From: Spirochaetia bacterium
Lineage (GTDB): Bacteria > Spirochaetota > Spirochaetia > WTKD01 > G963693115
Length of the DNA: 64,000 bases
Assembly (NCBI GenBank): GCA_963693115.1
Contig: OY843750.1
Coordinates: 1,660,680 to 1,724,679 of the forward strand
Direction: 5' to 3'
The stretch's first letter is position 1. Each line of letters starts with the position of its first letter. Both the position numbers and the translations under genes were made by a program. The notes below the pieces were generated by a model. That model made no database searches. It had not been told where the DNA came from and saw only the letters and a program-made list of their open reading frames with translations. Shown here piece by piece: positions 5,409 through 46,554 of this stretch.

Positions 5409-5409
5409 T

Positions 5410-23401: not shown

Positions 23402-26400
23402 TCACCTAAAAAAAGCCCCTGTTCCTTTTAGCACTGTCCCTCCAAAGGTATAACCACCACCAAAAACGAGTACCATAATGTTTTTGTCATTGGGAAAGTA
23501 ACCGTTTTCAATGAGTTCGGTTGTACAAATAGGCACAGTACTTGAAGAGCTGTTACCATGCCTCTCTATACTAGAGTAGAACAGTGAAGGAGCGAGTTTG
23601 AGGCGTTTCTGTACTGCATTAATAATTTTTTGGTTGGCTTGGTGAGCTATTACCATATCTATATCATCAGCACTCAGTCCATGCATATCAAGCAAACGAT
23701 AGTACATGTTCATGAGTTCTGCGATAGCAGTTTTATACACATGAACACCATCCATAGAAATATATCCTTTATCTGGCACCACGAGCTTTTCTGAAGGCTC
23801 ACCGCGGGTAAGCAATATTGGCTCAGTAACATTCGCAAATCCCTTAGATGCAAGTGGATGCTTTGCACCACATACGAGAGTGGCAGTCGCGGCATCAGAA
23901 AAGACTGCCGATGTCTGCCTATCGGTAACGTCTACAAAGGGCGAGAGTACCTCCGATGTCACCACTAATACTAACTCATTAGGGTGGAGTACAAGATGCT
24001 GATATACCTCTTTAAGAGCAAATACATAGCCCGAGCATGCAGCAGATACATCGTAGGCAAAATTATCCTCCTGATGAGTATCAAATTCTGTATTGAGCAA
24101 GTATTGCACATGTGCTGCGAGCGAAGGTGTTTTAGTCGTATGTGTACCCGTTGCACAGACAATACCAGACACCTCTCGAAAGGAAATATCAAGAGAATGT
24201 AAAACTTTGCGCGAAGCATCAAATGCCATTGTTATAGTGTTTTGCGCCTCACTTACCCAATGTCGATGCTTAATACCGGTGCTCTGAACAATCTGCTCCT
24301 CACTCCAGTCCGATATTATGTTGATAAGGTCGGCATTGGTGAGAATCTTTTCTCCTAATGAGATATCACTTCTTACAAGTTTAGGACAACGAGACATGTG
24401 TTCTATTGATCCAAACTCTGCTAACGAAGTCTCGTGATCATTATGCGTATCTGAAGGACTTCCCAATATTCCTGCGGAATCACTACTATCGTGCTTCTTT
24501 TTGAGGGGTGTAATAGTAACGAGGCCTAGTTCTTCACGTGTTAGGGTTTTAAAACTCGCCTCATCACTCGTAAGATGGGCAATGCTCGTTCCTACAGGTA
24601 CAGTATCACCTTCTTCATACAATAATTTTTTTACTGTTCCTTTGACGGTAGTACTGAGTTCTATGGATGCTTTGTCAGCTTCAAGTTCTGCAATCACTTG
24701 CCCAACTTCGACCTCATCGTCTTCTTTTATCTTCCACTCAATAATTGTGACCGACTCGTCAGAAGGGCTTGATCCTATAGCAGATATAACATTGGTATTT
24801 TCTTCTGATTCTGAGATATCCTCAAACTGGACACTTGCTTCGCACATAGCTGCAATCGTCTCTATGGTGCCTTTAAGAGAAGGGAGAATCTCTAATTGAT
24901 TTTCAAAATTAAAGGGAACAAAGGTGTCGCTCCGTGCATAGCGCCTCACCTGCACCCCTTCCGTATGTTCTGCAATACGCGCTACAATCTCTGCCCCAAC
25001 ACCAAGCGAGATATTGCCCTCGTGAATTACGAGTGCCTTTTTGGTCTTATTGACACTATTGTATATTGATTCATAGTCTACGGGACTTATGCTTCTAAGA
25101 TCCAGTACTTCTAGTGAGATGCCTACTTTAGAAAAATAATCAGCAGCTGCTAACCCAAAATATACTGTATTTCCGTAGGCAATCACCGTAAGGTCCTTAC
25201 CAGATGTTAGTACACGAAGGCTCGCTGGAGCTACATAGTGGGTCGCTATATCTCTTTTAGAAATAAGATACTGTTTGGTATTGAGCTGGTTCTTAGGATA
25301 AAAAAATATGCAGGGGCGCTCTGACTCAAATGCGGTGTTGAGAAGCCCCGCAGCGTCTTGTGCATTGGATGGTATATACACATCTAAGCCAGGTATATGC
25401 GATGAAAATCCCTCCATGGAAGCAGCATGAAAAGGCCCAAGACCTGGTCTATACCCACCATAGGTTGCCATGATAATGAGCGGGCAATTCCATTCACCGG
25501 CGGTACGCCAGTGAATACTTGCAAGCTCGCTGTATATCTGATTAAATGCTATAGGAAAAAAATCAGCAAACTGCAAAAAAGCAACAGGACGCTTGCCTAC
25601 AAGCGCTTTTCCTATTGAACTCCCAAGAATGAGAGCTTCACTCAGGGGGCTGTTTTTAACTTTTCCAGGAAACTGGCTTGAAAGCCCTTTGGTAACCCCA
25701 AACACGTCACCCTTTGGATCTTCAAGGTCTTCTCCATAAAGCTCAACGTTCTTGTTTTTCTTGAGCCAGCTACGAAGTACTTCTCTTATAGCTTTTAGCA
25801 TGGTGAGCGCATCGTCATCGTCCTTTGGCTCTTGCAATGTGGGTACACGTGCGAGCGTATCACTAAAACTGGGAGACAAGTCTCTACGAGCATGGAATGC
25901 CGGTTGTGGAGTACCCACACGCTGACTCTGGTGTGCAATGGGACGTAATTCTTTAATTTTTGCGGTAATTTTTTCAAAAAATAGCGTATCAACATCGGTA
26001 TCGGGATAGAAAGACTGTATTGCAAAGCGTATGGGATCACTACCACTTTTTAAGTTTTCTATTTCTTCTTTGGAACGATATACAAGATGGTCATCAGCAT
26101 TCGTATGACTTTCCAATCGCTGCGTATGATAGACAACTATCTCTGGTTCTCTTGTCGTGCGTATTGCGTCGACAGTCTGTGAAAACTGATTGTGAAGTCC
26201 TTCTATATCAGATCCCTTGACATGTCGTATTGTTTTGCCAAGCAATTCTTTTATCAAGCCATCTTGCGTATTATAAAATGTTTTTTTGACAGTAGAAGTA
26301 GAGATTGCAAATTCGTTGTCTTGTATAAGGAACAAGACTGGTAATTTTTCAAGTAGTGCATGGATAATAGCATTATGAAACTCAGCTTGTTGTGTTGCGC

Positions 26401-26833
26401 CTTCGCCCAAAGAACATAATACCAATGGGGCTTCTTTTTTCTGCTTTATCGCTTCTGCTATTCCAACAGCCTGAAGCGCATTATTACCAACGGGCGCCAC
26501 CATACTCAGTATCCGAGCAGGTGCATAACTGACATGCGGATTCATCTGCCTTCCCTTTGATACTGAAGCGCTATTACTAAAAAGCGCATCAAAAAAGTGC
26601 TTGGGCGTCATTCCTCTTGCGAGTAGCAAAGCCTTGTCCCTGTAATGACAATGCAGGTAATCCTGCTTTATAAGGTAAGGCGCGAGAAACACATTGCTCT
26701 CATGACCCGCAGATGATACGTGAAAAAATGCTTCGCCACGTTGCGTATACTCCTTCTCCAAGAAGTCAATCGCACGGGTTGTTACCATATGGTCAAGCAA
26801 AGCAAGGTTTGTATTAGAAGAAATCTCTGACAT
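23402..26833 (-). CDS. fusion protein: 2-oxoacid dehydrogenase E1 alpha, E1 beta, lipoyl domain and 3-oxoacyl-ACP synthase III (FabH-like)
   Basis: The E1alpha TPP motif is GEGATQQAEFHNAI..LPVLFLIQDNEFAIST. The E1beta motif is FLQFADFFPIAFNQI. The lipoyl-lysine motif is ELEADKASIEL. The KAS III triad contexts are SAACSGYVFAL (Cys), VIAHQANQKII (His) and HGNSSSSTVPI (Asn). It is one uninterrupted 1143-codon ORF. Confidence 0.8.
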   Translation of the reverse strand: MSEISSNTNLALLDHMVTTRAIDFLEKEYTQRGEAFFHVSSAGHESNVFLAPYLIKQDYLHCHYRDKALLLARGMTPKHFFDALFSNSASVSKGRQMNPHVSYAPARILSMVAPVGNNALQAVGIAEAIKQKKEAPLVLCSLGEGATQQAEFHNAIIHALLEKLPVLFLIQDNEFAISTSTVKKTFYNTQDGLIKELLGKTIRHVKGSDIEGLHNQFSQTVDAIRTTREPEIVVYHTQRLESHTNADDHLVYRSKEEIENLKSGSDPIRFAIQSFYPDTDVDTLFFEKITAKIKELRPIAHQSQRVGTPQPAFHARRDLSPSFSDTLARVPTLQEPKDDDDALTMLKAIREVLRSWLKKNKNVELYGEDLEDPKGDVFGVTKGLSSQFPGKVKNSPLSEALILGSSIGKALVGKRPVAFLQFADFFPIAFNQIYSELASIHWRTAGEWNCPLIIMATYGGYRPGLGPFHAASMEGFSSHIPGLDVYIPSNAQDAAGLLNTAFESERPCIFFYPKNQLNTKQYLISKRDIATHYVAPASLRVLTSGKDLTVIAYGNTVYFGLAAADYFSKVGISLEVLDLRSISPVDYESIYNSVNKTKKALVIHEGNISLGVGAEIVARIAEHTEGVQVRRYARSDTFVPFNFENQLEILPSLKGTIETIAAMCEASVQFEDISESEENTNVISAIGSSPSDESVTIIEWKIKEDDEVEVGQVIAELEADKASIELSTTVKGTVKKLLYEEGDTVPVGTSIAHLTSDEASFKTLTREELGLVTITPLKKKHDSSDSAGILGSPSDTHNDHETSLAEFGSIEHMSRCPKLVRSDISLGEKILTNADLINIISDWSEEQIVQSTGIKHRHWVSEAQNTITMAFDASRKVLHSLDISFREVSGIVCATGTHTTKTPSLAAHVQYLLNTEFDTHQEDNFAYDVSAACSGYVFALKEVYQHLVLHPNELVLVVTSEVLSPFVDVTDRQTSAVFSDAATATLVCGAKHPLASKGFANVTEPILLTRGEPSEKLVVPDKGYISMDGVHVYKTAIAELMNMYYRLLDMHGLSADDIDMVIAHQANQKIINAVQKRLKLAPSLFYSSIERHGNSSSSTVPICTTELIENGYFPNDKNIMVLVFGGGYTFGGTVLKGTGAFFR

Positions 26834-28412: not shown

Positions 28413-30599
28413 CTATTGTTCTGCCCATACTGGTATTTCTGTAATACCTGACTCTTGAAACATCTCCTTCATATCTGTCACATTACTCACATCCCATTCC
28501 CCTATGTCTTGGTTAAACTTGCTTGCTTTATAGAACATATAACTCATATCTGCTACATTGCCCACATCCCATCCCCCTATATCTTGATCAAATTTACTCG
28601 CTCCACCAAACATTATTTTCATATCTGTCACATTACTCACATCCCATCCTCCTATGTCTTGATTAAACTCACTCGCTTCAAAAAACATAGCACTCATGTT
28701 TGTTACATTACTCACATCCCATCCCCCTATATCTTGGTTAAACTCACTCGCTTCAAAAAACATACCTCTCATATCTGCCACTTTGCTCACATTCCATCTC
28801 CTTATATCTTGGTTAAATTCACTCGCTCCACCAAACATATAACTCATCTTTGTCACTTTGCTCACATCCCATCCCCCTATATCTTGGTTAAACTCACTCG
28901 CTTCAAAAAACATACCTCTCATATCTGCCACTTTGCTCACATTCCATCTCCTTATATCTTGGTTAAATTCACTCGCTCCACCAAACATATAACTCATCTT
29001 TGTCACTTTGCTCACATCCCATCCTCCTATGTCTTGATTAAAGTCATCCGCTTCTTCAAACATCCTACTCATATCTGTCACGTTGTTTACATCCCATCTC
29101 CCTATGTCTTGGTTAAAGTCAAGCGCTTCGTCAAACATACTATTCATATTTGTAACCTTGCTCACATCCCATTCCCCTATATCTTGATTAAATTTACTTG
29201 CGACAAGAAACAACTTCTGCATATCTACTACGCTACTCACATCCCATCCTCCTATATCTTGATTAAACTCACTTGCTCCACCAAACATATAACTCATATC
29301 TGTCACGTTACTCACATCCCACCCCCCTATGTCTTGATCAAATGCACTTGCTTCTAAGAACATATAACTCATATCTATCACCTTGCTCACATCCCAGCTC
29401 CCTATGTATTGATTGAAGTCAAGCGCTTCATAGAACATATCAGCCATATCTATCACATTGCTCACATCCCATCCCCCTATGTCTTGATTAAATTTACTCG
29501 CTTTGCTGAACATCACACTCATATCTGTCACATTGCTCACATCCCAACCTCCTATGTCTTGATTAAACTCACTTGATCCACCAAACATTCCTCTCATATC
29601 TGTCACACTACTCACAGCCCATCTTCCTATGTCTTGGTTAAATGCACTCGCTTCAAAAAACATTATTCCCATATCTGTCACATTGCTCACATCCCAACCT
29701 CCTATGTCTTGATTAAACTCACTTGATTTAGCAAACATTCCTCTCATATCTTTTACATTACTCACATTCCATCCTCCTATGTCTTGATTAAAGTCATCCG
29801 CTTCTTCAAACATCCTACTCATATCTGTCACGTTGTTTACATCCCATCTCCCTATGTCTTGGTTAAAGTCAAGCGCTTCGTCAAACATTCTATTCATATT
29901 TGTAACCTTGCTCACATCCCATTCCCCTATATCTTGATTAAATTTACTTGCGACAATAAACAACTCCCGCATATCTACTACGCTACTCACATCCCATCCT
30001 CCTATGTCTTGATTAAACTCACTTGCTCCACCAAACATATAACTCATATCTGTCACGTTACTCACATCCCACCCCCCTATGTCTTGATTGAACACGATCG
30101 CTTCAATGAACATACTACGCATATTTACCACGTTACTCACATCCCACCCCCCTATGTCTTGATTGAACTCACTTGCTCCAGCAAACATATAACTCATATT
30201 TGTCACTTTGCTTACATCCCACCCCCCTATGTCTTGATTGAATCCTATCGCATCTTCAAACATACTGCTCATATTTTTCACACCACTCACATCCCAACAT
30301 GAGATATCTCCGTTGAAATTCTCCTTACCTATAAACAATTCACTCATATCGGTAATTCTACTGGTGTCTATGCTATTTAAGTCTGCTGTCGAATCTTGTT
30401 TTATTAGCTCTTCTATGGCTACTTTTAATGATTCTTTATTATCTACTGTGGTTGTGGGAACAGGGCATGATCTTGCATCTGCTTTCTCACCTGTGAGTGC
30501 TTTGCTCTCCTGTGCTCTTGCTTCATTTGTACTCACTATCATTACTATTCCTAAAAACAATAGTGCTATGCTACTTTCTTTTTTGTATTGTATTTTCAT
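28413..30599 (-). CDS. secreted DUF285/BspA-type leucine-rich-repeat surface protein (728 aa)
   Basis: The signal peptide ends ..NEARA/QE. A conserved N-terminal domain is followed by tandem 25-aa units [25 protein letters not shown]. The C-terminal motif is [12 protein letters not shown]. Confidence 0.85.
28711..29010. repeat. perfect 150-nt tandem duplication (two copies) inside the 28413..30599 gene
   Basis: By direct reading, 28711-28860 and 28861-29010 are identical. Each copy spans two 75-nt repeat units. Confidence 0.9.
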
Positions 30600-30791
30600 G
30601 TATTAGTTTTCCTCCTTTTGTCTATGGTTCCTATACCCAATAATTAATATGAGAGAATTGCAATCTTACCATCCTGCATTTTTAGCCACTTACCTTATCT
30701 GTCCTGGTCTCCTCATCTCTTGCTTATCTTTATACATACACCATACCTTGATTAGTTTCATAGCTATGCTATTTTTTACTCTATCTCTGCT

Positions 30792-33659
30792 TTACTGTTC
30801 TACCCATGCAGGTATTTCTGTAATACCTGATCCTAGAAACATCTCCTCCACATCTGTCACCTTACTCACATCCCATTCCCCTATGTCTTGGTTAAATGCT
30901 AAGGCATAACGAAACATAGCCGTCATATCTATCACCTTACTCACATTCCATCCCCCTATGTCTTGATTAAAGTCAAGCGCTTCAATGAACATACCAGCCA
31001 TATCTATCACCTTGCTCACGTCCCATCTCCCTATATCTTGGTTAAAATCACTCGTTCTATTAAACATATAACTCATATCTCTCACATTGCTCACATCCCA
31101 TCCCCCTATATCTTGATTAAAGACTATCGCTTCCCTGAACATATAACTCATATTTGTCACCTTATTCACGTTCCATCTCCCTATGTCTTGATTAAAGTCT
31201 CTCGCTTGGTTGAGCATACTTTTCATATTTTTCACATTACTCACATCCCATCCCCCTATGTCTTGATCAAATTCACTTGCTTTTATGAACATATAACTCA
31301 TATCTATCACATTGCTCACATCCCATCCCCCTATGTCTTGATTAAAGACTATCGCTTCCCTGAACATATAACTCATATTTGTCACCTTATTCACGTTCCA
31401 TCTCCCTATGTCTTGATTAAAGTCTCTCGCTTCGTTTAGCATACTTTTCATATTTTTCACATTACTCACATCCCATCCCCCTATGTCTTGATTAAAGACT
31501 ATCGCTTCCCTGAACATATAACTCATATTTGTCACCTTATTCACGTTCCATCTCCCTATGTCTTGATTAAAGTCTCTCGCTTCGTTTAGCATACTTTTCA
31601 TATTTTTCACATTACTCACATCCCATCCCCCTATGTCTTGATCAAATTCACTTGCTTTTAAGAACATATAACTCATATCTATCACATTGCTCACATCCCA
31701 TCCCCCTATGTCTTGATTAAAGACTATCGCTTCCCTGAACATATAACTCATATTTGTCACCTTATTCACGTTCCATCTCCCTATGTCTTGATTAAAGACT
31801 ATCGCTTCATAGAACATACCCCTCATGTTTGTTACATTATTCACGTCCCATCCCCCTATATCTTGGTTAAATTTACTCGCTCCGCTGAACATATAACTCA
31901 TATCTGCCACCTTGCTTACATCCCATCCCCCTATGTCTTGATTAAAGTCAAGCGCTTCAATGAACATACCCCTCATGTTTGTTACATTATTCACGTCCCA
32001 TCCCCCTATATCTTGGTTAAATGCTCTCGCTCCGCTGAACATATAACTCATACCTGCCACCTTGCTCACGTTCCATCTCCCTATGTCTTGATTAAAGTCA
32101 AGCGCTTCAATGAACATTCCGCTCATATCTGTCACATTGCTCACATCCCATCTCCCTATGTCTTGATTAAAGACTATCGCTTCGTTGAGCATACTTTTCA
32201 TATTTTTCACATTGCTCACATCCCATCCTCCTATATCTTGATTAAACATACTCGCTCCACTAAACATACTACTCATATCTGTCACCTTACTCACATCCCA
32301 TCCCCCTATGTCCTGATTGAATTTACTTGCGAAGTAAAACATTTCATTCATATATCTTACATTGCTCACACCCCATCCTCCTATATCTTGATTAAATTCA
32401 AGCGCTTTATAGAACATACCACTCATTTTTCTCACGTTACTCACATCCCATCCCCCTATATCTTGGTTAAACTCACTCGCTCCTCTAAACATCTCCCGCA
32501 TATCTCTCACATTACTCACATCCCATCCTCCTATGTCCTGATTAAAATCTCTCGCTCCTCTAAACATCTCCCGCATATCTCTCACATTACTCACATCCCA
32601 TCCTCCTATGCCTTGATTAAATGCATTCGTTTCGCTGAACATCTTCCTCAAATTTTTCACACTACCCACATCCCACCCCCCTATATCTTGATTAAATACA
32701 CTCGTCCCTCTAAACATCTCCCTCATATCTGTCACATTACTCACATCCCATCTCCCTATATCTTGGTTAAATTTTTCCGCTCCATTGAACATATAACTCA
32801 TAGCTGTTACATTACTTACGTCCCATTCTTCTATATTTTGATTAAACGTACTCGCTCCTCTAAACATCTCCCTCATATCTGCCACCTTATTCACATTCCA
32901 TCCCCCTATGTCTTGGTTAAACGCACCCGCTTCTCTAAACATACCACTCATATTTGTCACCTTGCTCACATCCCACTTTCCTATGTTTTGGTTAAATGCA
33001 TTCGTTTCTCGGAACACACCCCACATATTTGTCACGTTACTTACATCCCATTCCCCTATATCTTGGTTAAATGCATTCGTTTCTTGGAATATCCCCCCCA
33101 TATCCACCACGTTGCTCACATCCCATCCCCCTATGTCTTGGTTAAACTCACTTGCTCCTCTAAACATATAACTCATATCTACTACACTACTCACATTCCA
33201 TTCTCCTATGTCTTGATTGAATTTACTTGCTTCACTGAACATATCACTCATATCTGTCACATTGCTCACATCCCATCCTCCTATATCTTGGCTAAACTCA
33301 CTCGCATTTTCAAACATACCGCTCATATTTGTCACATTGCTCACATTCCAGCATGAGATGTCTCCGTTGAAGTATTCAATATCCATAAACAACTCACTCA
33401 TATCGGTAATTCTACTGGTGTCTATGCTGTTTAAGTCTGCTCTCGTGTCTTGTTTTATTAGCTCTTCTATGGCTACTCTTAATGATTCTTTATTATCTAC
33501 TGTGACTGTGGGTGTGGGTGTGGGACATGATCTTGTATCTGCTTTCTCACCTGTGAGCGCTTTACTCTCCTGTGCTCTTGCTTCATTTGCACTCACTATC
33601 ATTACTATTCCTAAAAATAATAGTGCTATGATACTTTCTTTTTTGTATTGTCCTTTCAT
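30792..33659 (-). CDS. secreted DUF285/BspA-type repeat surface protein (955 aa)
   Basis: Same architecture as 28413..30599. The C-terminal motif is [12 protein letters not shown]. Confidence 0.85.
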   Translation of the reverse strand: MKGQYKKESIIALLFLGIVMIVSANEARAQESKALTGEKADTRSCPTPTPTVTVDNKESLRVAIEELIKQDTRADLNSIDTSRITDMSELFMDIEYFNGDISCWNVSNVTNMSGMFENASEFSQDIGGWDVSNVTDMSDMFSEASKFNQDIGEWNVSSVVDMSYMFRGASEFNQDIGGWDVSNVVDMGGIFQETNAFNQDIGEWDVSNVTNMWGVFRETNAFNQNIGKWDVSKVTNMSGMFREAGAFNQDIGGWNVNKVADMREMFRGASTFNQNIEEWDVSNVTAMSYMFNGAEKFNQDIGRWDVSNVTDMREMFRGTSVFNQDIGGWDVGSVKNLRKMFSETNAFNQGIGGWDVSNVRDMREMFRGARDFNQDIGGWDVSNVRDMREMFRGASEFNQDIGGWDVSNVRKMSGMFYKALEFNQDIGGWGVSNVRYMNEMFYFASKFNQDIGGWDVSKVTDMSSMFSGASMFNQDIGGWDVSNVKNMKSMLNEAIVFNQDIGRWDVSNVTDMSGMFIEALDFNQDIGRWNVSKVAGMSYMFSGARAFNQDIGGWDVNNVTNMRGMFIEALDFNQDIGGWDVSKVADMSYMFSGASKFNQDIGGWDVNNVTNMRGMFYEAIVFNQDIGRWNVNKVTNMSYMFREAIVFNQDIGGWDVSNVIDMSYMFLKASEFDQDIGGWDVSNVKNMKSMLNEARDFNQDIGRWNVNKVTNMSYMFREAIVFNQDIGGWDVSNVKNMKSMLNEARDFNQDIGRWNVNKVTNMSYMFREAIVFNQDIGGWDVSNVIDMSYMFIKASEFDQDIGGWDVSNVKNMKSMLNQARDFNQDIGRWNVNKVTNMSYMFREAIVFNQDIGGWDVSNVRDMSYMFNRTSDFNQDIGRWDVSKVIDMAGMFIEALDFNQDIGGWNVSKVIDMTAMFRYALAFNQDIGEWDVSKVTDVEEMFLGSGITEIPAWVEQ
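31321..31620. repeat. perfect 150-nt tandem duplication (two copies) inside the 30792..33659 gene
   Basis: By direct reading, 31321-31470 and 31471-31620 are identical. Related but imperfect higher-order copies flank them between about 31080 and 31800. Confidence 0.9.
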
Positions 33660-33860
33660 GTATTAATTATCCTCTTTTTATCCATGGTCTCTATAACCCA
33701 GAAATTTATGTGAGAGAATTGTAGCCTTGCCATCCTGCAACTATTAACTACATTCATCGACAACTACCCCTATTGAATTTTCTACCTCTTGCTTATCTTT
33801 GTACACACACGATACCTTGATTAGTTTCATAACTACACTATTTTTTAGCCTAACACTGTT

Positions 33861-34940
33861 CTACTGTTCTGCCCATGCAGGTATCTCTGTAATACCTGAC
33901 CAAAGAAATATATAGCTCATATCTGTCACATTACTCACATCCCATCCCCCTATGCTTTGATTAAATTCATTCACGTCTGACCTCAATACTCTATTAGCAC
34001 TACTAATAGTACTACCAAAAGTTACTCCAGAGAACATCCAGCCCATACTTATGACATTACTCACATTCCATCCTCCTATGTCTTGGTTAAACTCTCTTGC
34101 CACACTAAACATTCCATTCATATCTGTCACATTACTCACATCCCATCCCCCTATATCTTGATTAAATTCTTTCGCTTCACTGAACATTTCTGCCATATCT
34201 GTCACATTACTCACATCCCATCCCCCTATGTTTTGATTAAATTCTATCGCTCCGCTAAACATGCTACTCATATTTATTACCTCACTCACATCCCATCCCC
34301 CTATGTCTTGATTAAACGCACTCGCTCCTCTAAACATTCCGCTCATGTCTGTAACATTGCTCACATTCCACCCTCCTATGTCTTGATTAAATTCACTTAC
34401 GCCTATCGTCCATTCTCTATATTTACTATGAAAGCTTACTCCAGAGAACATCCACTCCATACTTGTCACATTACTCACATTCCATCTCCCTATATCTTGA
34501 TTAAATTCTCTCGCTCCGCTAAACATTCCACCCATATTTGTTACATTGCTCACATTCCACCCTCCTATGTCTTGATTAAATTCTCTCGCCCCACTGAACA
34601 TGCTACTCATATTTGTTACCTCACTCACATCCCAACATGAAATATCTCCGTTAAAGTGCTCCATACCCATAAACAACTCACTCATATCGGTAATTCTACT
34701 GGTATCTATGCTGTTTAAATCTGCTATCAAGTAGTCTTGTTTTATTAGCTCTTCTATGTTTGCTTTTAATAATTCTTTGTTATCTACTGTGATTGTAGGA
34801 ACAGGACATGATGTTATATCTGCTTTCTCATTTGTGAGTGCTTTACTCTCCTGTGCCATTGCTTCATTTGCACTCACTACCATTACCATTCCAAAAAACA
34901 ATAGTGGTATGATGCCTTCTTTTTTGTATTGTCTTTTCAT
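33861..34940 (-). CDS. secreted DUF285/BspA-type repeat surface protein (359 aa)
   Basis: Has the same signal peptide, N-terminal domain and repeats. Two repeats carry loop insertions. The C-terminal motif is [12 protein letters not shown]. Confidence 0.85.
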
Positions 34941-35021
34941 GTATTAGTTCTCCTCCTCTTATCTACGGTCTCTATACTCGGAGATTTCCGCTTTTAATCT
35001 CGTATAGTATAAGCATAGTTA

Positions 35022-37245
35022 TTACTTCTTTGTTTTAGATTCTAAATAGTCTATTGTAGGTTTCCATAGGTTAAGAAGTTCACCTATTGTTGGATCTCGG
35101 TAATGTTTATTTGTCTCTGTTGCTCCAATTCGTTTCAAATTATATTTAGTATCATTCACGATTATATCTTCTACTTTTTTTGCAGTAATTGCAGCACGTA
35201 CATGATTGCCGACTATTGTTCCTATAAATTCTCCCGCAACAACTGAATCTCCTTCTGTCAGTTCATCTTTAGGATTAATATATATGATAGACACTTGGGT
35301 ACCATCATTTCCTGTAATATGTACTTTGTCGGTCTCTACAAATTTTACATATCCATTAATCATAGCACCTATTTTCTTTCCATGACTAGCGTTTATTTTT
35401 TCTTCTTCATCGGTTTTCATTCCTACACCATAAAAATAAATTGCTGTATCCGTTCCAAGATGACGGTGACGATTTTCTCTTGGCTCATGTGTGTGGTTAT
35501 TTCCTACATAACTAGTAATTACAATGTTCCAGTTGTGAACCAAGCTAATGCTAGCAAGGTCTCTTGATTCTTTTTCATTGCTCACATCCCATTCCTCTAT
35601 GTCTTGATTAAATTCTCTCGCTCCGCTAAACATTTTACTCATATCTCTCACATTACTCACATCCCACTTCCCTATTTTTTGATTGAATTCAATCGCTTCA
35701 CTGAACATACCCTCCATATTTCTCACCTTACTCACATCCCATCTCACTATATCTTGGTTAAACACATTCGCTCCGCTAAACATTTTACTCATATCTCTCA
35801 CATTACTCACATCCCACTTCCCTATGCTTTGATTAAATTCAATCGCTTCACTGAACATACCCTCCATATTTCTCACCTTACTCACATTCCATCCTCCTAT
35901 GTCTTGATTAAATTCTATCGCTCCGCTAAACATATAGCTCATATCTATCACATTACTCACACCCCACTCTCCTATCCCTTGATTGAATTCAATCGCTTCT
36001 TCAAACATCCTACTCATATATCTCACGCTACTCACGCCCCATCTCCTTATGTCTTGATTAAATTCTTTCGCTCCGCCAAACATTTTACTCATATCTCTCA
36101 CACTACTCACATCCCATCCCCCTATGTCTTGATTAAACTCATTCGATCCGCTAAACATTTTACTCATATCTCTCACATTTCTCACATCCCATCCTCCTAT
36201 GTCTTGATTAAACTCATTCGATCCGCTAAACATTCCACTCATGTCTGTTATATTACTCACATCCCATCCCCCTATGTCTTGATTAAATGCATTCGCTTCT
36301 CTAAACATTCCACCCATGTCTCTTACATTGCTCACATCCCATCCTCCTATGTCTTGATTGAATTCACTCGTTCCACCTAACATCCAACTCATATTTGTCA
36401 CGTTACTCACATCCCATCCCCCTATATCTTGATTAAACTCACTCGCTTCTCTAAACATTCCACTCATGTCTGTTACATTGCTCACGTCCCATCCCCCTAT
36501 GTCTTGATTGAATTTACTCGTTCCACCTAACATCCAACTCATATTTGTCACGTTACTCACATCCCATCCCCCTATATCTTGGTTAAACTCACTCACTCCT
36601 CTAAACATCTCTCTCATATCTCTCACATTGCTCACATCCCATCCTCCTATGTCTTGATTAAATTTCCACGCACTACTAAACATACTGCTCATATCTGTCA
36701 CATTGCTCACATCCCATCCCCCTATGTCTTGGTTAAAAGCGAAGGCGTAATGAAACATCTTTTCCATGTCTCGTACATTGCTCACATCCCATCCTCCTAT
36801 GTCTTGATTAAAACGCATTCGCTTCTTCAAACATTCTACTCATATCTGTCACATGGCTCACATCCCATCCCCCTATCTCGTGATTAAATTCTTTCGCTCC
36901 GCTGAACATACTACTCATATCTGTCACATTGCTCACATCCCAACATGAGATATCTCCATTGAAGTTCTCCATATCCACAAATAACTCACTCATATCGGTA
37001 ATTCTGCTGGTATCTATGCTGTTTAAATCTGCCGTTGAGCCTTGTTTTATTAGCTCTTCTATGGCTACTTTTAATGATTCTTTGTTATCTACTGTGGTTG
37101 TGGGGGTGGGGCATGATTTTGTATCTGCTTTTTCACCTGTGAGCGCTTTGCTCTCCTGTGCTCTTGTTTCATTTGCATTCACTATCATTACTATTCCTAA
37201 AAAAAATAGTGCTATGATGCCTTTGTTTTTGTATCGTATCTTCAT
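35022..37245 (-). pseudogene. DUF285 repeat protein with a C-terminal M23/LytM-like module, split by a +1 frameshift at 36810-36813
   Basis: ORF 36808..37245 encodes the signal peptide, N-terminal domain and first repeats. ORF 35022..36830 encodes repeats plus a 184-aa non-repeat C-terminus. The two overlap in different frames. The plus strand reads ttaaaacgcattcgcttcttc here, whereas intact paralogous repeats (for example near 38790) read ttaaacgcattcgcttcttc. Confidence 0.75.
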
Positions 37246-37446
37246 GTATTAGTTTTCCTCCTTTTTGTCTATGGTCTCTATAACCAAATAATTAGAGTGA
37301 GAGCATTGTAGCCTTGCCATCCCGCAATTATTAACTACACTCATCGGCAACTACTCCTATTGAGTTTTCTACCTCCTTTTTGTTTTGTAGTTACACCATA
37401 CCTTGATTAGTTTCATAGCTATGCTATTTTTTACTCTATCTCTGCT

Positions 37447-39453
37447 TTACTGTTCTGCCCACGAAGGTATTTCTGTAATACCTGACCCAAGAAACATCTT
37501 TTCCATGTCTCGTACATTGCTCACATCCCATCCCCCTATGTCTTGGTTAAAAGCGAAGGCGTAATGAAACATCTTTTCCATGTCTCGTACATTGCTCACA
37601 TCCCATCCCCCTATGTCTTGGTTGAACGCAATCGCTTTGCTGAACATACCACCCATATATTTCACATTACTCACATCCCATCCTCCTATATCTTGGTTAA
37701 AATCACTCGCTCCGCTGAACATGCCCCCCATACCTCCCACATCACTCACGTTCCATCCTCCTATGTCTTGGTTGAACGCAATCGCTTTGCTGAACATAGC
37801 ACCCATATCTATCACGTTGCTTACATCCCATCCTCCTATGTCTTGGTTAAATGTAATCGCTGCATAAAACATATAACTCATATCTGCTACGTTACTCACA
37901 TCCCATCCCCCTATGTCTTGGTTAAATGCACTCGCTTCAATGAACATAGCACCCATATATTTCACATTACTCATATCCCATCCCCCTATGTCTTGGTTAA
38001 ATTCTCTCGCATTTTTGAACATTCCTCTCGCATATATCACATTGCTCACATCCCATCTCCCTATGTCTTGATTAAAGTCAACCGCTCCGCTGAATATCCC
38101 ACTTATAGCTGTCACGTTACTCACATCCCATCCCCCTATGTCTTGATTAAATGCACTCGCTTCGCTGAACATATCACTCATATTTGTCACATTACTCACA
38201 TCCCATTCCCCTATATCTTGGTTAAATGTAATCGCATAAAGAAACATGTAACTCATATCTGTCACGTTACCCACATCCCACCCCCCTATGTCTTTATTAA
38301 ACACGTATGCACCCCAGAACATACTACTCATATTTGTCACATTACTCACATCCCATCCCTCTATGTCTTGATTAAACTCTCTCGCTCCGCTGAACATTCC
38401 TTTCATACCTACCACATTGCTTACATCCCATCTCCCTATGTCTTGATTGAATCTTCTCGCTTCGTCGAACATACTACTCATATTTGTCACATTACTCACA
38501 TCCCATCCCCCTATATCTTGATTAAATGTACTCGCTCCGCTGAACATGCCCTCCATAGATTCTACATTGCTCACATCCCATTCCCCTATGTCTTGATTAA
38601 ATGCACTCGATACTGAAGTATAATATTCTCTCTCTTGAGCAAGATACCCCCTTCCAGAGAACAACCATCCCATATTTGTCACATTACTCACATCCCATCC
38701 CCCTATGTCTTGATTAAATGTACTCGCTTCAATGAACATACCGTTCATTGTTCTCACGTTACTCACATCCCAACCCCCTATGTCTTGGTTAAACGCATTC
38801 GCTTCTTCAAACATCCTACTCATATTTGTCACATTGCTCACGTCCCATCCCTCTACGTCTTGGTTAAATTCTCTCGCTTCATCAAACATCCCACTCATAT
38901 CTGTCACACTACTCACGTCCCATACTCCTATATCTTGGTTAAATTCTCTCGCCCCGCTAAATATACCGCTCATATTTGTCACCTTACTCACATCCCACTC
39001 TCCTATGTCTTGGTTAAACGCATTCGCTTCTTCAAACATTCTACTCATATCTGTCACCTTACTCACATCCCATCCCCCTATGTCTCGATTAAATCTTCTC
39101 GCTTCACTGAACATACCTCTCATGTTTGTCACACTGCTTACATCCCAACATGAGACATTTCCGTTAAAGTATTCCTTACCCATAAACAACTCACTCATAT
39201 CGGTAATTCTACTGGTATCTATGCTGTTTAAATCTGCTGTCAAGTAGTCTTGTTTTATTAGCTCTTCTATGGCTACTTTTAATGATTCTTTGTTATCTAC
39301 TGTGGTTGTGGGAACAGGGCATGATCTTGTATCTGCTTTCTCACCTGCGAGCGCTTTGCTCTCCTGTGCTCTTGCTACATTTGCACTCACTATCATTATT
39401 ATTCCTAAAAACAATAGTGCTATGATGCCTTTGTTTTTGTATCGAATCTTCAT
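37447..39453 (-). CDS. secreted DUF285/BspA-type repeat surface protein (668 aa)
   Basis: Same architecture as the other array genes. The C-terminal motif is SGITEIPSWAEQ. Confidence 0.85.
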   Translation of the reverse strand: MKIRYKNKGIIALLFLGIIMIVSANVARAQESKALAGEKADTRSCPVPTTTVDNKESLKVAIEELIKQDYLTADLNSIDTSRITDMSELFMGKEYFNGNVSCWDVSSVTNMRGMFSEARRFNRDIGGWDVSKVTDMSRMFEEANAFNQDIGEWDVSKVTNMSGIFSGAREFNQDIGVWDVSSVTDMSGMFDEAREFNQDVEGWDVSNVTNMSRMFEEANAFNQDIGGWDVSNVRTMNGMFIEASTFNQDIGGWDVSNVTNMGWLFSGRGYLAQEREYYTSVSSAFNQDIGEWDVSNVESMEGMFSGASTFNQDIGGWDVSNVTNMSSMFDEARRFNQDIGRWDVSNVVGMKGMFSGAREFNQDIEGWDVSNVTNMSSMFWGAYVFNKDIGGWDVGNVTDMSYMFLYAITFNQDIGEWDVSNVTNMSDMFSEASAFNQDIGGWDVSNVTAISGIFSGAVDFNQDIGRWDVSNVIYARGMFKNAREFNQDIGGWDMSNVKYMGAMFIEASAFNQDIGGWDVSNVADMSYMFYAAITFNQDIGGWDVSNVIDMGAMFSKAIAFNQDIGGWNVSDVGGMGGMFSGASDFNQDIGGWDVSNVKYMGGMFSKAIAFNQDIGGWDVSNVRDMEKMFHYAFAFNQDIGGWDVSNVRDMEKMFLGSGITEIPSWAEQ

Positions 39454-39532
39454 GTATTAGTTATCCTCCTTTTGTCTATGGGCTCTATAACCCAGAAATT
39501 TTTGCGTTCAATCTCGTATAGTGTAAACATAG

Positions 39533-39943
39533 TTACGGCTCCTTTGCTTTAGATCTCCATGAGTCTGTTGTGGGCTTCCATAAGTTAGAAAGCTCCTCTT
39601 TTGTTGGATCTCGGTACCATTTACGTGTCCAATCTTTTCCTGTTGGCTTCATATTATGTTTAGTATCTTTCACGATTACACCTCCTTCTGTTTTTGCAGT
39701 AATTTGTGTAGTATCTTCTTCTCTTTTTACAGCAATTGCAGCGTGTACGTGATCGCCGACTATTGTTCCTATAAATTCTCCCGGAACAACCCTAATTACT
39801 TCTACCGGTTTTTCTTGTAGTTTTTTTTCCCTTATTTCATACCATTTTTCTTTCATTCCCTCTTTAGGATTAATATGTATAGTAGGCACGTGGGTACACG
39901 ATACCTTATACATAGCAATATCAACTCCACTACAAGACGCCAT
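39533..39943 (-). pseudogene. orphan, N-terminally truncated copy of the M23/LytM-like C-terminal module
   Basis: The 136-aa ORF can be aligned with the C-terminus of 35022..36830. Shared segments are INPK, GEFIGTIVG[ND]HV[RH]AAI and YRDPT..EL.NLWKPT.D. It has no signal peptide or repeats and no obvious SD. It lies 39 nt downstream of the gcvP stop. Confidence 0.55.
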
Positions 39944-39982: not shown

Positions 39983-42922
39983 CTACGTATACGAGGTCAG
40001 TGGCGGACACGAACATACGAGATTGCGATCTCCCTGCACATCGTCTATACGCTCAACTGGAGGCCAATATTTAGCATAATTCTGTGTTTGTGCACTCGCA
40101 ATACTGCGCGAGTATGGAAGTGAATACGTATCTGACATCACTGTTTCGATTGTATGAGGAGCATTTTTTAGTGGGTTGTTTGACTTGTCCCATTGTCCCT
40201 GCTCTATTAGGTCAATCTCTTTTCTAATATCGCGCAAGGCTGCTATAAAGCGATCAAGTTCTTGCCGTGGCTCTGATTCGGTCGGTTCAAGCATGAGGGT
40301 TCCTACAACGGGCCACGACATCGTAGGTGCATGAAACCCGTAATCGATGAGTCGTTTTGCAATGTCTTGTACCGTTACCCCGCTGGTTTCGCGAACGACT
40401 CGAGTATCGAGTACACATTCGTGTGCCACAAGTCCAGCGTTTCCTTTATACAAAACGGGAAAATATTCGTTAAGCAAACAAGAAAGATAGTTGGCATTCA
40501 ATATAGCGTATTGCGTCGCTTCAGTAAGACCGTCACCACCGAGCAAACGAATATACATCCATGATATAGGGAGTATAGATGCAGAACCGTAGGGAGCCGA
40601 AGCAATACGCAGTTCCTTGGTTTCGTTTATCGATGAATCGTGTACGTTCTTTTCTCTTCTTGTATTTCCTATTTCTTCTCCTGTAGAAGGAAGAAATTCA
40701 GCCAGATGCGTCGCTACCCCTATTGGTCCGACGCCAGGACCACCACCCCCATGCGGTATACAAAATGTTTTATGAAGATTCATATGGCATACATCCGCTC
40801 CAATATCTGCTGGACGGGCGAGACCAACCATGGAATTGAGATTTGCCCCATCAAGGTATACCTGACCACCACAATCGTGTATAAGTTTACATATATCGAC
40901 TATATCACTTTCAAATACTCCATGGGTAGAAGGATAGGTAATCATAAGCGCTGCAAGACGCTCCTTATGTTCTGTCGCTTTATTTCTGAGATCATCCAGT
41001 GATACATTGCCATGAGTATCGCATTTTACCACCATGATATCCATGCCTGCCATTTGTGCAGACGCAGGATTTGTTCCGTGTGCCGATTCGGGAATAAGGC
41101 AGAGCTTCCTATTTGTCTCCCCTTTTTGTGCAAAATAGGTCTTGATGGCAAGCAGACCTGCATATTCGCCCTGACTGCCAGAGTTGGGTTGAAAACTTAC
41201 CTTACTAAACCCAGTAATTTCGCAAAGCCACTCTTCTAGCTGGCTAAGCATACGCATATAGCCCTTGCGGTACTTGCTCGGAGCAAAGGGATGTACGTTT
41301 GCTATCTGTGGCCAACTCACAGGAATCATCTCTACGGCTGCATTGAGTTTCATGGTACACGATCCCAAGGGAATCATACTACGGTCAAGGGCAAGGTCCT
41401 TGTTTACGAGCTCCCGCAAAAAACGCATAAAACTCGTTTCTGACTTATTGAGGTGAAAAGGTGCTTGAGATAAAAAATCCTCCCCACGCGCCCCATAGTT
41501 CAACATCGATCCGCCAGTACTATCAGTTATCTCATCACGAGCATAGTTTGCTACATCCTCGCTACCACGTATAGTTTCTTTAGTGGTTTCTTTGGTAGCC
41601 TCATTAGCTAGCTCCTGAGTAGGTGCTTGGGCAAGTGGTATCGAAAACACGTCGGCGAGCATCCTGAGTGTGTCTTGTGTGCATGTTTCATCAAAGCTAA
41701 GGGCTATGTTTTTCGGATCAATTACCCGTAGCAACAAACCAGTTTTTTCTGCTTTTTCTGCAATTGCATATGCATCAGCAACACGTACCGTGAGCGTATC
41801 AAAATAGTGTTGCGTAGCAATCTTATAAGCACCAGCCTCAAGGCTTCTCGCAAAACGTTTCGTTAGCGTGTGTATACGCTGTGCAATAGCAATGAGCCCC
41901 TTGGGTCCATGCCATATCGCGTAGGCTACTGCCATATTTGCGAGGAGTGCCTGAGCAGTACATATATTGGACGTTGCTTTTTCACGTCTGATATGCTGTT
42001 CTCGCGTCTGGAGTGTGAGTCTGTACGCAGGTCTACCATTGGCATCCCTTGACTGCCCAACCAAACGACCTGGCAATAAGCGTGCAAGCTCTTTATCAAC
42101 AGCCATATACGCCGCATGTGGTCCACCATTTCCCATGGGTACGCCATATCGTTGCATACTTCCCACTACAATATCGGCACCCATGCGAGCAGGTGCGTCC
42201 ATCAGGAGTAGTGACATAGGATCGGCAACGATAATAACGAGACAGCCCAAGCGTCGAGCGTTCTGTATGACATCGTCAAAGTTTTCTATCGCACCATAGG
42301 TATCGGGGCGTTGTATGACAATGGCTATTACCTCTTCGCTCAAGAGGGAGGGGTCATCGCTGAGTTCTAAACCTATCTGAGTACAACGAGTATTGAGTAC
42401 CTGCACGTTTTGTGGATGCAAGGCGTTGACCGTCACTATCTTTGTACGACGCTCCCTATGTTTTCTAAATGCAAGCGTAACTGCCTCGGCTATTGCCGTT
42501 CCTTCGTCTAAAAGGGATGCATTTGCAATATCCAAGCCCGTGAGCTCACATACAAGCGTTTGATAGTAGAAAAGCAACTCCAGTCTTCCTTGGCTTATCT
42601 CAGACTGGTATGGAGTATACGATGTGTACCAACCGGGGTTTTCAAAGAGGTTTCTAAGAATAGCTGAAGGTACATACGTATTGTGATACCCTTGCCCTAT
42701 GAGTGACTGCGCCTGCGGAACATCGCTAAACATGGATGAAAGTTCTTTTAGTGCTTGGTGCTCGTTTGTTCCTTCGGGAATCGTAAGGCTCTGCTTATAT
42801 CGAATGACGTCGGGAACAGCATCATTTATAAGCGAATCCAACGATTCGTAACCTAAAAGCTTGAGCATTTCTTGTGCATCTTTGACACTAGGTCCTATAT
42901 GCCTATGCGTAAATTTCTGCAT
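39983..42922 (-). CDS. gcvP: glycine dehydrogenase (decarboxylating), single-chain P-protein
   Basis: A 979-aa protein with HRHIGPS at the N-terminus, MIPLGSCTMKLNA, and NLHKTFCIPHGGGGPG as the PLP-lysine region. Confidence 0.92.
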   Translation of the reverse strand: MQKFTHRHIGPSVKDAQEMLKLLGYESLDSLINDAVPDVIRYKQSLTIPEGTNEHQALKELSSMFSDVPQAQSLIGQGYHNTYVPSAILRNLFENPGWYTSYTPYQSEISQGRLELLFYYQTLVCELTGLDIANASLLDEGTAIAEAVTLAFRKHRERRTKIVTVNALHPQNVQVLNTRCTQIGLELSDDPSLLSEEVIAIVIQRPDTYGAIENFDDVIQNARRLGCLVIIVADPMSLLLMDAPARMGADIVVGSMQRYGVPMGNGGPHAAYMAVDKELARLLPGRLVGQSRDANGRPAYRLTLQTREQHIRREKATSNICTAQALLANMAVAYAIWHGPKGLIAIAQRIHTLTKRFARSLEAGAYKIATQHYFDTLTVRVADAYAIAEKAEKTGLLLRVIDPKNIALSFDETCTQDTLRMLADVFSIPLAQAPTQELANEATKETTKETIRGSEDVANYARDEITDSTGGSMLNYGARGEDFLSQAPFHLNKSETSFMRFLRELVNKDLALDRSMIPLGSCTMKLNAAVEMIPVSWPQIANVHPFAPSKYRKGYMRMLSQLEEWLCEITGFSKVSFQPNSGSQGEYAGLLAIKTYFAQKGETNRKLCLIPESAHGTNPASAQMAGMDIMVVKCDTHGNVSLDDLRNKATEHKERLAALMITYPSTHGVFESDIVDICKLIHDCGGQVYLDGANLNSMVGLARPADIGADVCHMNLHKTFCIPHGGGGPGVGPIGVATHLAEFLPSTGEEIGNTRREKNVHDSSINETKELRIASAPYGSASILPISWMYIRLLGGDGLTEATQYAILNANYLSCLLNEYFPVLYKGNAGLVAHECVLDTRVVRETSGVTVQDIAKRLIDYGFHAPTMSWPVVGTLMLEPTESEPRQELDRFIAALRDIRKEIDLIEQGQWDKSNNPLKNAPHTIETVMSDTYSLPYSRSIASAQTQNYAKYWPPVERIDDVQGDRNLVCSCPPLTSYT

Positions 42923-44671: not shown

Positions 44672-44891
44672 CCCCTCTGTCTTGTGACCTGAAAGTTTTA
44701 CAGCATATTATTGCTGCTTGCCTCTTCGGTGCTCATGGCTCTCCAGAGTTTACTAAAAACAGCAGTCCTTTTGCCTGAGAGTTTCCGGGGAACGTTTCAC
44801 CTTCGGCGATGCATAGTTAAGCCGAGAACCAAAAAAGCTATAAAGCAAAAATAATGATTCGGGACATACTAATACATGCTCTCCTGCTGTT
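44672..44891 (-). promoter_or_regulatory. tandem glycine riboswitch (two aptamers) in the gcvT leader
   Basis: Minus-strand aptamer 1 reads ACAGCAGGAGAG...CGCCGAAGGTGAAAC...CTCTCAGGCAAAAGGACTGCTGT, with P1 ACAGCAG/CTGCTGT. Aptamer 2 reads CTCTGGAGAGCCATGAGCACCGAAGAGGCAAGC...TTTCAGGTCACAAGACAGAG. Both match the conserved GGAGAG / CCGAAGG / CAGG..A..GAC cores. Confidence 0.85.
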
Positions 44892-45213
44892 TTTTGTAGC
44901 GAATTACTGCCATGTACAGTATAACACAATCGCCACGTGTAGTTATTGCTTATAATTACCAGCATGTGAGTATAGCGCACTTTCTCACCCATATATTGAT
45001 ACGATATTGACGATACGAGTACGGCTGAGAGCTATGCTAAAAAACCCATAAAAAACAAGCAAAGTTCTTGCTACACATAATTGGTGAATTAGGATAATAT
45101 GCGATACTACAATGAGGTGAACGAAATGTGGTAACCAAACATCTTTTGTGCCACTTCTCCATCTGCATTAACTTAGCCATTTATCCTTTACTGGCTATGC
45201 TTGTTTGTTAATC

Positions 45214-46554
45214 TTATTGACTATGCCAGCTCGGTGGAATGAATGTTGTATCACAATTTGCACCAGTATCTCTAAACATATAAGTTTTCTTCACTCCTGT
45301 CCTTAGCTTTGATTCCCAGTTAGCTAGATCTTGGCAAAAGGAAGTAGCATTATAAAACATCCAAGACATATCGGTAACCTTTGAGACGCCCCAATTTTTA
45401 ATGTCACTGTTAAATGCACTTGCATCACCAAACATATCGCTCATATCGGTAACCGCTGATACATTCCAGTCTTTTAGGTTGCTATTAAATACCGTTGCTT
45501 CTCTAAACATACTATTCATATTTGTGACCTTTTCTACGTTCCATTTACTAATGTCTTGGTTAAAAGCAAATGCTTTATAAAACATACGATCCATCTTAGT
45601 AACCGATGACACATCCCAGTCGCCTATGTTCTGGTTAAAAACACTTGCTCCAAAAAACATCCAATCAGTACTTTTAACCTTTCCTACCTTCCACTCGCTA
45701 ATGTCTTGGTTAAAGTCTGTGGCATTATAAAACATACTGCTCATATCAGTGACTTCTGACACATCCCAGCCTTTAATGTCGCCATTAAAGGCTGTTGCAT
45801 TATAAAACATATTAGACATATCGGTGACCGCTGATACATTCCAACTCCCTATGTTTTGGTCAAAGGCATTTGTATAACTAAACATAAAAGCTACATCTGT
45901 GACCTTTCCTACCTTCCATTTACTAATATCCTGGTTAAATACATGTGCAGTAGAAAACATACTGCTCATATCAGTGACCGCTGATACATTCCAGTTTCCT
46001 ATGTCTTGGTTAAAGTCTGTTGCATTATAAAACATGCTAGTCATACCAGTGACCGCTGAAACATCCCAGCCTTTAATGTCGCCATTAAAGGCTGTTGCAT
46101 TATAAAACATATTAGACATATCGGTGACCGCTGATACATCCCAGTCTTTAAGGTTGCTGTTAAATGCACGTGCTCCACTAAACATACTAACCATACTGGT
46201 GACCGCTGATACATTCCAACATGCTATACTGCCTTTGAATTCTGCTTTATCCTTAAACAATTCATCCATATTATCTATATTCGATGTATCTATGTAGTTG
46301 AGATCAGCCTTATCGTTGTTTAAAATAGTTCTATTGATCTCCGTAATAAGATCTTCTTTTATCTCAGGTGCTCTTGTAGTCCTTATAGTATCGCAGTCAA
46401 TATTGCCAGTATTATTGCTGGTCTTATTATTGTCACTACTAAGACTACCGATGTCATCGGTACACGATACTATTGCCCCCATAAGCACAAAGCATACTCC
46501 CACAAGGGTATACCCATTATAAAGACGATTTGATATGGTACTATGGCTATTCAT
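45214..46554 (-). CDS. DUF285/BspA-type repeat lipoprotein (divergent paralogue, 446 aa)
   Basis: The signal peptide has a lipobox-like GAIVSC. The repeats are FNxDIxxWDVSAVTDMSxMFxxAxA. They are more divergent at nucleotide level than the array copies. Confidence 0.8.
   Translation of the reverse strand: MNSHSTISNRLYNGYTLVGVCFVLMGAIVSCTDDIGSLSSDNNKTSNNTGNIDCDTIRTTRAPEIKEDLITEINRTILNNDKADLNYIDTSNIDNMDELFKDKAEFKGSIACWNVSAVTSMVSMFSGARAFNSNLKDWDVSAVTDMSNMFYNATAFNGDIKGWDVSAVTGMTSMFYNATDFNQDIGNWNVSAVTDMSSMFSTAHVFNQDISKWKVGKVTDVAFMFSYTNAFDQNIGSWNVSAVTDMSNMFYNATAFNGDIKGWDVSEVTDMSSMFYNATDFNQDISEWKVGKVKSTDWMFFGASVFNQNIGDWDVSSVTKMDRMFYKAFAFNQDISKWNVEKVTNMNSMFREATVFNSNLKDWNVSAVTDMSDMFGDASAFNSDIKNWGVSKVTDMSWMFYNATSFCQDLANWESKLRTGVKKTYMFRDTGANCDTTFIPPSWHSQ

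Follow-up and report, generated by a model that had tools for sequence, protein, structure and literature searches.

Peptidases of the M23 family (PF01551), among them lysostaphin, LytM and MepM, are common as secreted bacteriolytic effectors. In LytM a fifth active-site histidine lies on the 'Y.H' strand, beside the residues of the HxxxD and HxH motifs, and typical M23 domains have roughly 12-15 residues between HxH and a distal DP. A degenerate subset, the dLytM domains of factors such as EnvC, NlpD, DipM, ActS and SpoIIQ, carries substitutions in HXXXD or HXH and contains no zinc in crystal structures (PMC8416486). The PARCEL/DUF285 or 'BspA-like' surface proteins have as their hallmark dyad-symmetric coding DNA with long open reading frames (ORFs) on the opposite strand (PMC2996958); Röske et al. 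2010 (PMC2996958) described PARCEL ORFs without targeting signals, intragenomic shuffling and a possible role as 'reservoirs of sequence variants'. We analyzed a 64,000-nucleotide stretch of the genome of a Spirochaetia bacterium (contig OY843750.1, positions 1,660,680 to 1,724,679; hereafter the window; G+C ~40%), in which a minus-strand PARCEL/DUF285 gene at 35022..37245 ends in a module resembling M23/LytM peptidases. With modest confidence, we favor the view that this module is the decaying relic of an M23 (lysostaphin/LytM-type) peptidase gene that became fused to a PARCEL gene, and not a displayed effector.

The initial annotation of this DNA described an ORF at 35022..36830 (minus strand, 602 aa) as a DUF285 repeat protein with a divergent M23/LytM-like end, and we confirm the ORF. 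About 418 of its residues are DUF285/PARCEL repeats (PF03382, E = 1.3e-187; TIGR02167 in 14 stretches) with the repeat length of 25-26 residues that characterizes PARCEL. The pattern stops after ...EEWDVSN at 35583 and gives way to a non-repetitive tail that runs to the stop at 35022 and stands where the paralogues carry the ending SGITEIPxWAEQ, as had been claimed, the tail being 186 aa and not 184 aa long. Both strings on which the M23/LytM assignment had been based, RHRHLGTDTA and VHITGNDGTQVSIIYINPKDELTEGDSVVAGEFIGTIVGNHVRAAI, occur verbatim in it. From base composition, 186 stop-free codons in ~63% A+T sequence have an estimated probability of roughly 1e-6. The 602-aa ORF covers just the 3′ portion of a gene, and the TTG 'start' assigned to it arose from the way ORFs were listed. 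The gene is composed of the following parts.

36808..37245, minus strand: true 5′ part of the gene (145 aa), with a Sec-type signal peptide, the family N-terminal domain and the first PARCEL repeats, in a different frame
36810..36813, minus strand: TTTT run with one extra T, the frameshift that splits the gene
35583..36830, minus strand: PARCEL/DUF285 tract of 25-residue repeats, in the same frame as the module (ORF list, PF03382, TIGR02167)
35022..35582, minus strand: non-PARCEL C-terminal module, 186 codons plus stop, a putative degenerate M23/LytM-like domain followed by a predicted-helical tail of ~55 aa (sequence, PF01551, hhalign, MAFFT)
35448..35462, minus strand: HLGTD (H41-L-G-T-D45), candidate HxxxD zinc motif (MAFFT, extended hhalign)
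35202..35390, minus strand: module core, residues 65-127, GKKIGAMINGYVKFVE...VHITGNDGTQVSIIYINPKDELTEGDSVVAGEFIGTIVGNH, the stretch that matches M23 profiles (Pfam, hhalign)
35196..35204, minus strand: H127-V-R129, candidate degenerate HxH (codon alignment; VGNHVRA against tG.HLHF in hhalign)

A Pfam scan of the module stretch returned Peptidase_M23 (PF01551, E = 1.2e-3, 19.4 bits, profile positions 7-73 of 96) and no other family, with no Biotin_lipoyl, EIIA or HlyD match at E < 1. The M23 match persists when residues 65-186 are searched alone (E = 4.2e-3, 17.7 bits). Using hhalign, we compared residues 65-127 with a profile of 68 proteins retrieved with the lysostaphin catalytic domain and obtained a score of 32.2 (P = 6e-5, probability 64%), while 400 shuffles of the module scored 12.1 +/- 2.2 (maximum 20.8) and the reversed sequence 13.0. 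A second profile, of 64 different M23 domains related to the window's own M23 protein (5341..6474), scored 29.1 against 12.5 +/- 2.5 for 200 shuffles (maximum 19.5), and its alignment extends through VGNHVRA, paired with tG.HLHF across a 6-residue gap. Both profiles fall in the register found by Pfam and lie 6-9 standard deviations above the shuffles, a similarity beyond that of composition. The window's own M23 protein, encoded on the plus strand, is a genuine member of the peptidase family (PF01551, E = 7.5e-28), its H.G.D and DHLHFE motifs both being intact.

Upstream of the core the correspondence is looser. An alignment by MAFFT with 13 M23 sequences places ITSYVGN on itS.fG.R, H41, G43 and D45 on H.G.D, the two cores on each other, and H127 and R129 on the first and second histidines of HxH. 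Relaxed hhalign settings give a low-confidence extension in which RHLGTD pairs with H.GiD after a 17-residue insertion. The ITSYVG upstream of HLGTD, which resembles the family motif itS.FG.R, is spaced at 17 residues, compared with 16 in the family. When the N-terminal 64 aa were aligned alone with the N-terminal part of the M23 profile, VITSYVGN...HLGTD paired with iSS.fG.R...H.GID at a score of 14.8, which 5 of 300 shuffles equalled (p about 0.02, marginal). The HxxxD zinc motif proposed within RHRHLGTDTA is a candidate: HLGTD aligns to H.G.D in MAFFT and, at low confidence, in hhalign, and the assignment requires the 17-aa insertion and a marginal N-terminal match.

In all, five M23 motifs (itS.fG, H.G.D, the core, HxH, which is intact in a paralogous copy, and DP) occur in family order with family-like spacing, the core being colinear with both G.pV.A..dG.V and the v..Gd.V..Gq.IG..G hairpin. 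Weak matches to PHROG families (best E = 0.008; 'endolysin', E = 0.016) were taken as a hint only. A single-sequence AlphaFold2 model was uninformative (predicted local distance difference test score, pLDDT, 30). A model seeded with the 13 M23 sequences reached pLDDT 83-92 over residues 70-130, superposed on LytM and lysostaphin structures (template modelling score up to 0.54 on the target) and also matched EnvC, a result that is circular; EIIA-Glc structures were also among its fold-search matches. The M23/LytM reading is supported by lines of evidence that are individually weak and agree across methods, and from these alignments we consider descent of the module from the M23 family very probable.

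The module also departs from the family. It falls below the Pfam gathering score, contains the 17-aa insertion after HxxxD, lacks the sTG.stGP loop before HxH, and has ~34 residues between HVR and DP, followed by the predicted helical tail. In the alignments it retains three of the five active-site residues (H41, D45 and H127). Of the two HxH histidines, in M23 enzymes catalytic and zinc-binding respectively, the second is an arginine (CGT), and the catalytic 'Y.H' histidine is replaced by Y101 in the MAFFT alignment or I102 in that of hhalign; neither alignment places a histidine there. The degradation of HxH to HVR noted in the initial annotation is thus borne out. On these substitutions the module is predicted to be catalytically dead, unable to bind zinc or to cut peptidoglycan.

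A single relative of the module was found, also in the window. A search of 5.8 billion proteins and a full HMMER run over 1.84 billion cluster representatives returned one match, P0001, which tblastn places in the window as orf136, a 136-aa free-standing ORF that is called as a protein in public collections. Pattern-plus-tblastn scans of GTDB genome contigs, IMG/VR viral contigs and JGI metagenome contigs for the module found nothing. The module lies within the tandem array of PARCEL genes, and orf136 next to the first of them.

39533..39943, minus strand: orf136 (P0001), 136 aa, free-standing, 40 nt beyond the stop codon of gcvP and followed by the first PARCEL gene
37447..39453, minus strand: first PARCEL gene
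35022..37245, minus strand: second PARCEL gene, the gene under study
34941..35021, minus strand: intergenic stretch with the ribosome-binding site of the PARCEL gene that follows; its homologous counterpart after orf136 is 39454..39532
33861..34940, minus strand: third PARCEL gene
30792..33659, minus strand: fourth PARCEL gene
28413..30599, minus strand: fifth PARCEL gene

The DNA of the module and of orf136 is 72% identical over ~340 nt, with an additional block of 50 nt at 82%. The homology extends from the 3′ half of the module across the stop codon and through the entire ~80-bp spacer to the ATG of the next PARCEL gene. Since it runs through the spacer to a PARCEL start, the duplicated unit comprises module, spacer and PARCEL gene. 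The window has no second stretch of DNA that matches the N-terminal ~94 residues of the module, HLGTD among them; the short SGVDIAMY of orf136 may correspond to LGTDTAIY. orf136 retains GVD, IHINP and HVH and lacks ~45 aa of the central sheet, and it is probably a pseudogene fragment, a gutted M23 remnant that marks the left edge of the PARCEL array.

The two copies have lost different parts of the active site. In orf136 both histidines of HxH are present (HVH, with CAC at the codon that is CGT in the module), a histidine stands at the MAFFT-aligned 'Y.H' position, and the HxxxD histidine is a cysteine (C-SGV-D). The HVH of orf136 indicates that Arg129 of the module is a recent loss, and the loss of different residues in each copy implies, by parsimony, a common ancestor with all five residues and losses after duplication. 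As for the conservation of the HLGTD histidine and aspartate in homologues, the picture is mixed: the aspartate is kept in the sole homologue, while the histidine is cysteine and the whole central sheet is missing there.

Over the 92 alignable codons of module and orf136, the rates of synonymous (dS) and nonsynonymous (dN) substitution are 0.26 and 0.28 (dN/dS = 1.07; bootstrap 95% interval 0.58-2.2), and 0.02% of bootstrap replicates fall below 0.35 and 7% below 0.68. The N-terminal domains of the five PARCEL paralogues, an internal control with the same dS as the module pair (0.21-0.37), give dN/dS of 0.22-0.57. The module pair is not under detectable purifying selection. In the block conserved best (VV.GEFIGTIVG.HV.AAI) the two copies differ less at synonymous than at nonsynonymous sites (proportions of differences pS 0.13 and pN 0.20), which looks like shared DNA history rather than selection on the protein.

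The host gene is itself interrupted. Its two ORFs meet at GAAGAAGCGAATGCGTTTTAATCAAGAC (36801..36828), and a matching 27-mer occurs twice in the neighboring paralogue, with TTT there in place of TTTT. The one inserted T at 36810..36813 shifts the frame, so that the product of repeats plus tail, as sequenced, has no in-frame export signal. At the junction between PARCEL repeats and module (35520..35585, minus strand), the -1 frame reads ATG AAA AAG AAT CAA GAG ACC TTG CTA GCA TTA GCT TGG TTC… (MKKNQETLLALAWFTTGTL*). It resembles the beginning of a short signal-like peptide and may be what is left of the M23-like gene's own start, or a product of chance.

These observations can be joined in one history. 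An unusual M23-like gene would have stood directly upstream of a PARCEL surface-protein gene in this lineage, and the unit of M23-like gene, ~80-bp spacer and PARCEL gene was then duplicated, as the DNA-level homology shows. One copy, orf136, would have lost its central β-sheet. The other is joined in frame to the preceding PARCEL gene at a break inside a repeat after WDVSN, a join that would have cost that gene its SGITEIPxWAEQ end; either the fused or the free-standing form could be ancestral. Each copy would since have lost different active-site residues. The two have diverged without detectable purifying selection, and the host gene also carries the one-base frameshift that removes its signal peptide. 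The lost catalytic residues, the lack of purifying selection and the frameshift together make a relic more likely than a working effector. The initial annotation had pictured a peptidoglycan-hydrolase-like or LytM-like effector or anchor, possibly catalytically dead, displayed on a leucine-rich-repeat stalk. Of that picture the M23/LytM descent is supported as most likely, by the weak Pfam match and the two profiles, and the displayed effector or anchor is not supported: the signal peptide is cut off by the frameshift, dN/dS is ~1.07, and the 'Y.H' histidine and the second HxH histidine are gone.

Several observations weigh against the relic reading. The PF01551 score of the module (19.4 bits) does not reach the gathering score of 28.7, and the sole confident three-dimensional model was seeded with M23 sequences and, being circular, shows compatibility and is no independent proof. 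An open frame of 186 codons and the fact that both indels between the copies are in frame argue against long-standing neutrality. The dN/dS is a pairwise value, for which ~0.7 would be expected had only orf136 died while the module stayed under constraint, a range entered by the 7% of bootstraps below 0.68; diversifying selection acting on a surface domain could likewise bring the value close to 1. The upstream N-terminal part of the split gene shows no relaxed constraint, as the N-terminal domain of 36808..37245 has dN/dS of 0.23-0.43 against the paralogues, like intact copies. The frameshift involves one base of a short homopolymer, where misassembly could have produced it. GTDB, metagenome and protein searches found no related genome in which conservation could be tested.

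The strongest alternative is that the module is a functional non-catalytic dLytM domain at the end of a secreted PARCEL β-solenoid and that the frameshift is an assembly error or very recent. Such a domain might bind peptidoglycan peptides or a partner hydrolase, as in EnvC, NlpD and DipM, or form a fast-evolving, surface-exposed tip. The M23-like similarity is real, and substitution in HXXXD/HXH, with the expected loss of zinc and catalysis, follows the dLytM pattern (PMC8416486). The long open frame and the in-frame indels fit continued use, the 5′ part is constrained like that of intact paralogues, the frameshift is just one T, and the bootstrap interval leaves some room for constraint on one copy. 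Set against these are the dN/dS of ~1.07, the pS below pN in the best-conserved block, the lack of an in-frame signal peptide as sequenced, and the absence of any homologue outside this genome in protein, cluster, genome, viral or metagenome searches. Known dLytM factors are conserved housekeeping proteins under purifying selection, with coiled-coil or LysM partners and a working export signal, whereas the module is an orphan on PARCEL repeats in a frameshifted gene, with no amidase partner evident in the window. We regard this alternative as unlikely, though it deserves weight.

A more specific form of it, in which the fusion is real and expressed as a secreted PARCEL β-solenoid with a non-catalytic LytM-like tip, and the frameshift reflects either faulty assembly or reversible switching, appears improbable. 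If it were true, this would be the first PARCEL protein with a recognizable functional head; PARCEL stalks would present cell-wall-binding or hydrolase-regulating modules, and an exposed binding surface under diversifying selection would account for the rapid nonsynonymous change. A phase-variable frameshift was considered as well and set aside, the run of four T being too short to support it.

A comparably doubtful alternative is that the module does not derive from M23 at all and is a lineage-specific orphan domain in which HLGTD and HVR are chance matches. The pattern G..V.A..G.V ... G..V..G..IG would then be the generic 'hybrid motif' β-hairpin shared by M23, biotinyl/lipoyl, EIIA-Glc and HlyD-type domains. 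This view draws on the Pfam score below gathering, on hhalign probabilities of 41-64%, on the uninformative single-sequence model and on the EIIA-Glc structures in the fold-search list. With a home-made hidden Markov model (HMM) of full-length M23 proteins the module scored 1.6 bits, within the range of the shuffles; we discarded that HMM as too narrow or diluted by LysM regions. BLASTP of the module against the window's own M23 protein found nothing, and PDB sequence searches with the module and with a two-sequence profile yielded noise and no M23 match. Against this view, M23 is the sole Pfam family in the stretch, two independent M23 profiles agree on one register well above shuffles, the five family motifs keep family order and spacing, and at exactly the two residues that set the module apart from the M23 consensus the paralogue has histidine. 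It is very improbable that the module is an active if unusual M23 peptidase, delivered by a PARCEL stalk as a muralytic effector: H41, D45 and H127 are present and M23 enzymes often act as such effectors, but the second HxH histidine is arginine and the 'Y.H' histidine is Tyr or Ile, the gene is frameshifted, the module evolves close to neutrality, and solved dLytM structures show zinc binding lost where signature residues are substituted (PMC8416486).

On the minus strand the order is a glycine riboswitch (44753..44896), gcvT/gcvH/gcvP (39983..42922), orf136 and the five tandem PARCEL/DUF285 genes. Four of the five follow a common plan of a Sec-type signal peptide, a conserved N-terminal domain of ~100 aa, 25-residue repeats and an SGITEIPxW(A/V)EQ end, an ending present in all four paralogues (28413..30599, 30792..33659, 33861..34940 and 37447..39453). 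The N-terminal three quarters of the gene under study likewise form a standard PARCEL tract; it differs from the family in that a foreign domain replaces the C-terminal tag. Very long ORFs with a repeat pattern of their own lie on the opposite strand throughout the array (28413..39453, both strands), the dyad symmetry that marks PARCEL DNA.

31713..33356, opposite strand to the PARCEL genes: antisense ORF, 547 aa
37543..38616, opposite strand to the PARCEL genes: antisense ORF, 357 aa
35604..36380, opposite strand to the PARCEL genes: antisense ORF, 258 aa

The GC skew is ~-0.4 to -0.53 across 28-40 kb, against ~-0.1 in the rest of the window. The ~200-bp spacers between PARCEL genes (33660..33860, 30600..30791 and 37246..37446) are mutually homologous, and a ~45-nt leader (…TATAGAGACCATAGACAAAAGGAGGAAAACTAATAC-ATG) is common to all five genes. 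No excess of sigma-70-like promoters and no intrinsic terminator was found within the array, and the five genes may be transcribed by read-through from gcvTHP or from an unrecognised promoter type. A sixth, divergent DUF285 protein (45214..46554, minus strand) lies just upstream of the glycine riboswitch, outside the tandem family, with a lipoprotein-type signal (…GAIVSC) and a C-terminus that differs from that of the tandem family.

Elsewhere in the window, a 1143-aa ORF at 23402..26833 (minus strand) combines an E1 dehydrogenase, transketolase-like pyrimidine-binding and C-terminal domains, a lipoyl domain and a KAS III (FabH-type) domain, an unusual arrangement that joins a 2-oxoacid dehydrogenase to an enzyme initiating fatty-acid or polyketide synthesis. 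Two plus-strand genes encode unusual phosphotransferase system fusions, a Na+/H+ exchanger-EIIA(2) protein (3318..5408) and an EIIA(2)-HPr-Enzyme I multiphosphoryl transfer protein (11931..14570).

The lineage is isolated. Among the 5.8 billion proteins, nothing exceeds 38% identity to the window's own M23 protein, and the best match of gcvP is at 60% identity (Rhizobiaceae metagenome-assembled genomes), the closest group being Hyphomicrobiales at 55-60%. A metagenome scan with the PARCEL N-terminal domain for sister arrays found nothing, and the species is not among the GTDB representatives or metagenome contigs searched. The orphan status of the module is thus partly a matter of missing relatives and not of fast evolution alone.

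The remark that no described combination of this kind was known agrees with our searches: we found no paper that links DUF285/PARCEL with M23 in one polypeptide, the sole paper with both terms concerning separate ORFs of a jumbo phage, and PF03382 occurs in none of the 132 M23 proteins retrieved. The architecture is new as a variant; by the weight of the evidence it is a lineage-specific relic and not a new kind of effector. A chimeric and possibly silent array member fits the shuffling and possible 'reservoirs of sequence variants' described for PARCEL. The widespread PARCEL/DUF285 proteins lack an assigned function, and a recognizable cell-wall-directed domain would give a rare functional handle on them. 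The evidence points instead to gene decay and domain shuffling caught in progress within a tandem array of surface-protein genes, in a bacterium that is phylogenetically isolated. It offers a worked example of how chimeric ORFs originate at PARCEL arrays, and a caution for annotation that an 'enzyme domain' recognized at the level of motifs may be a relic.

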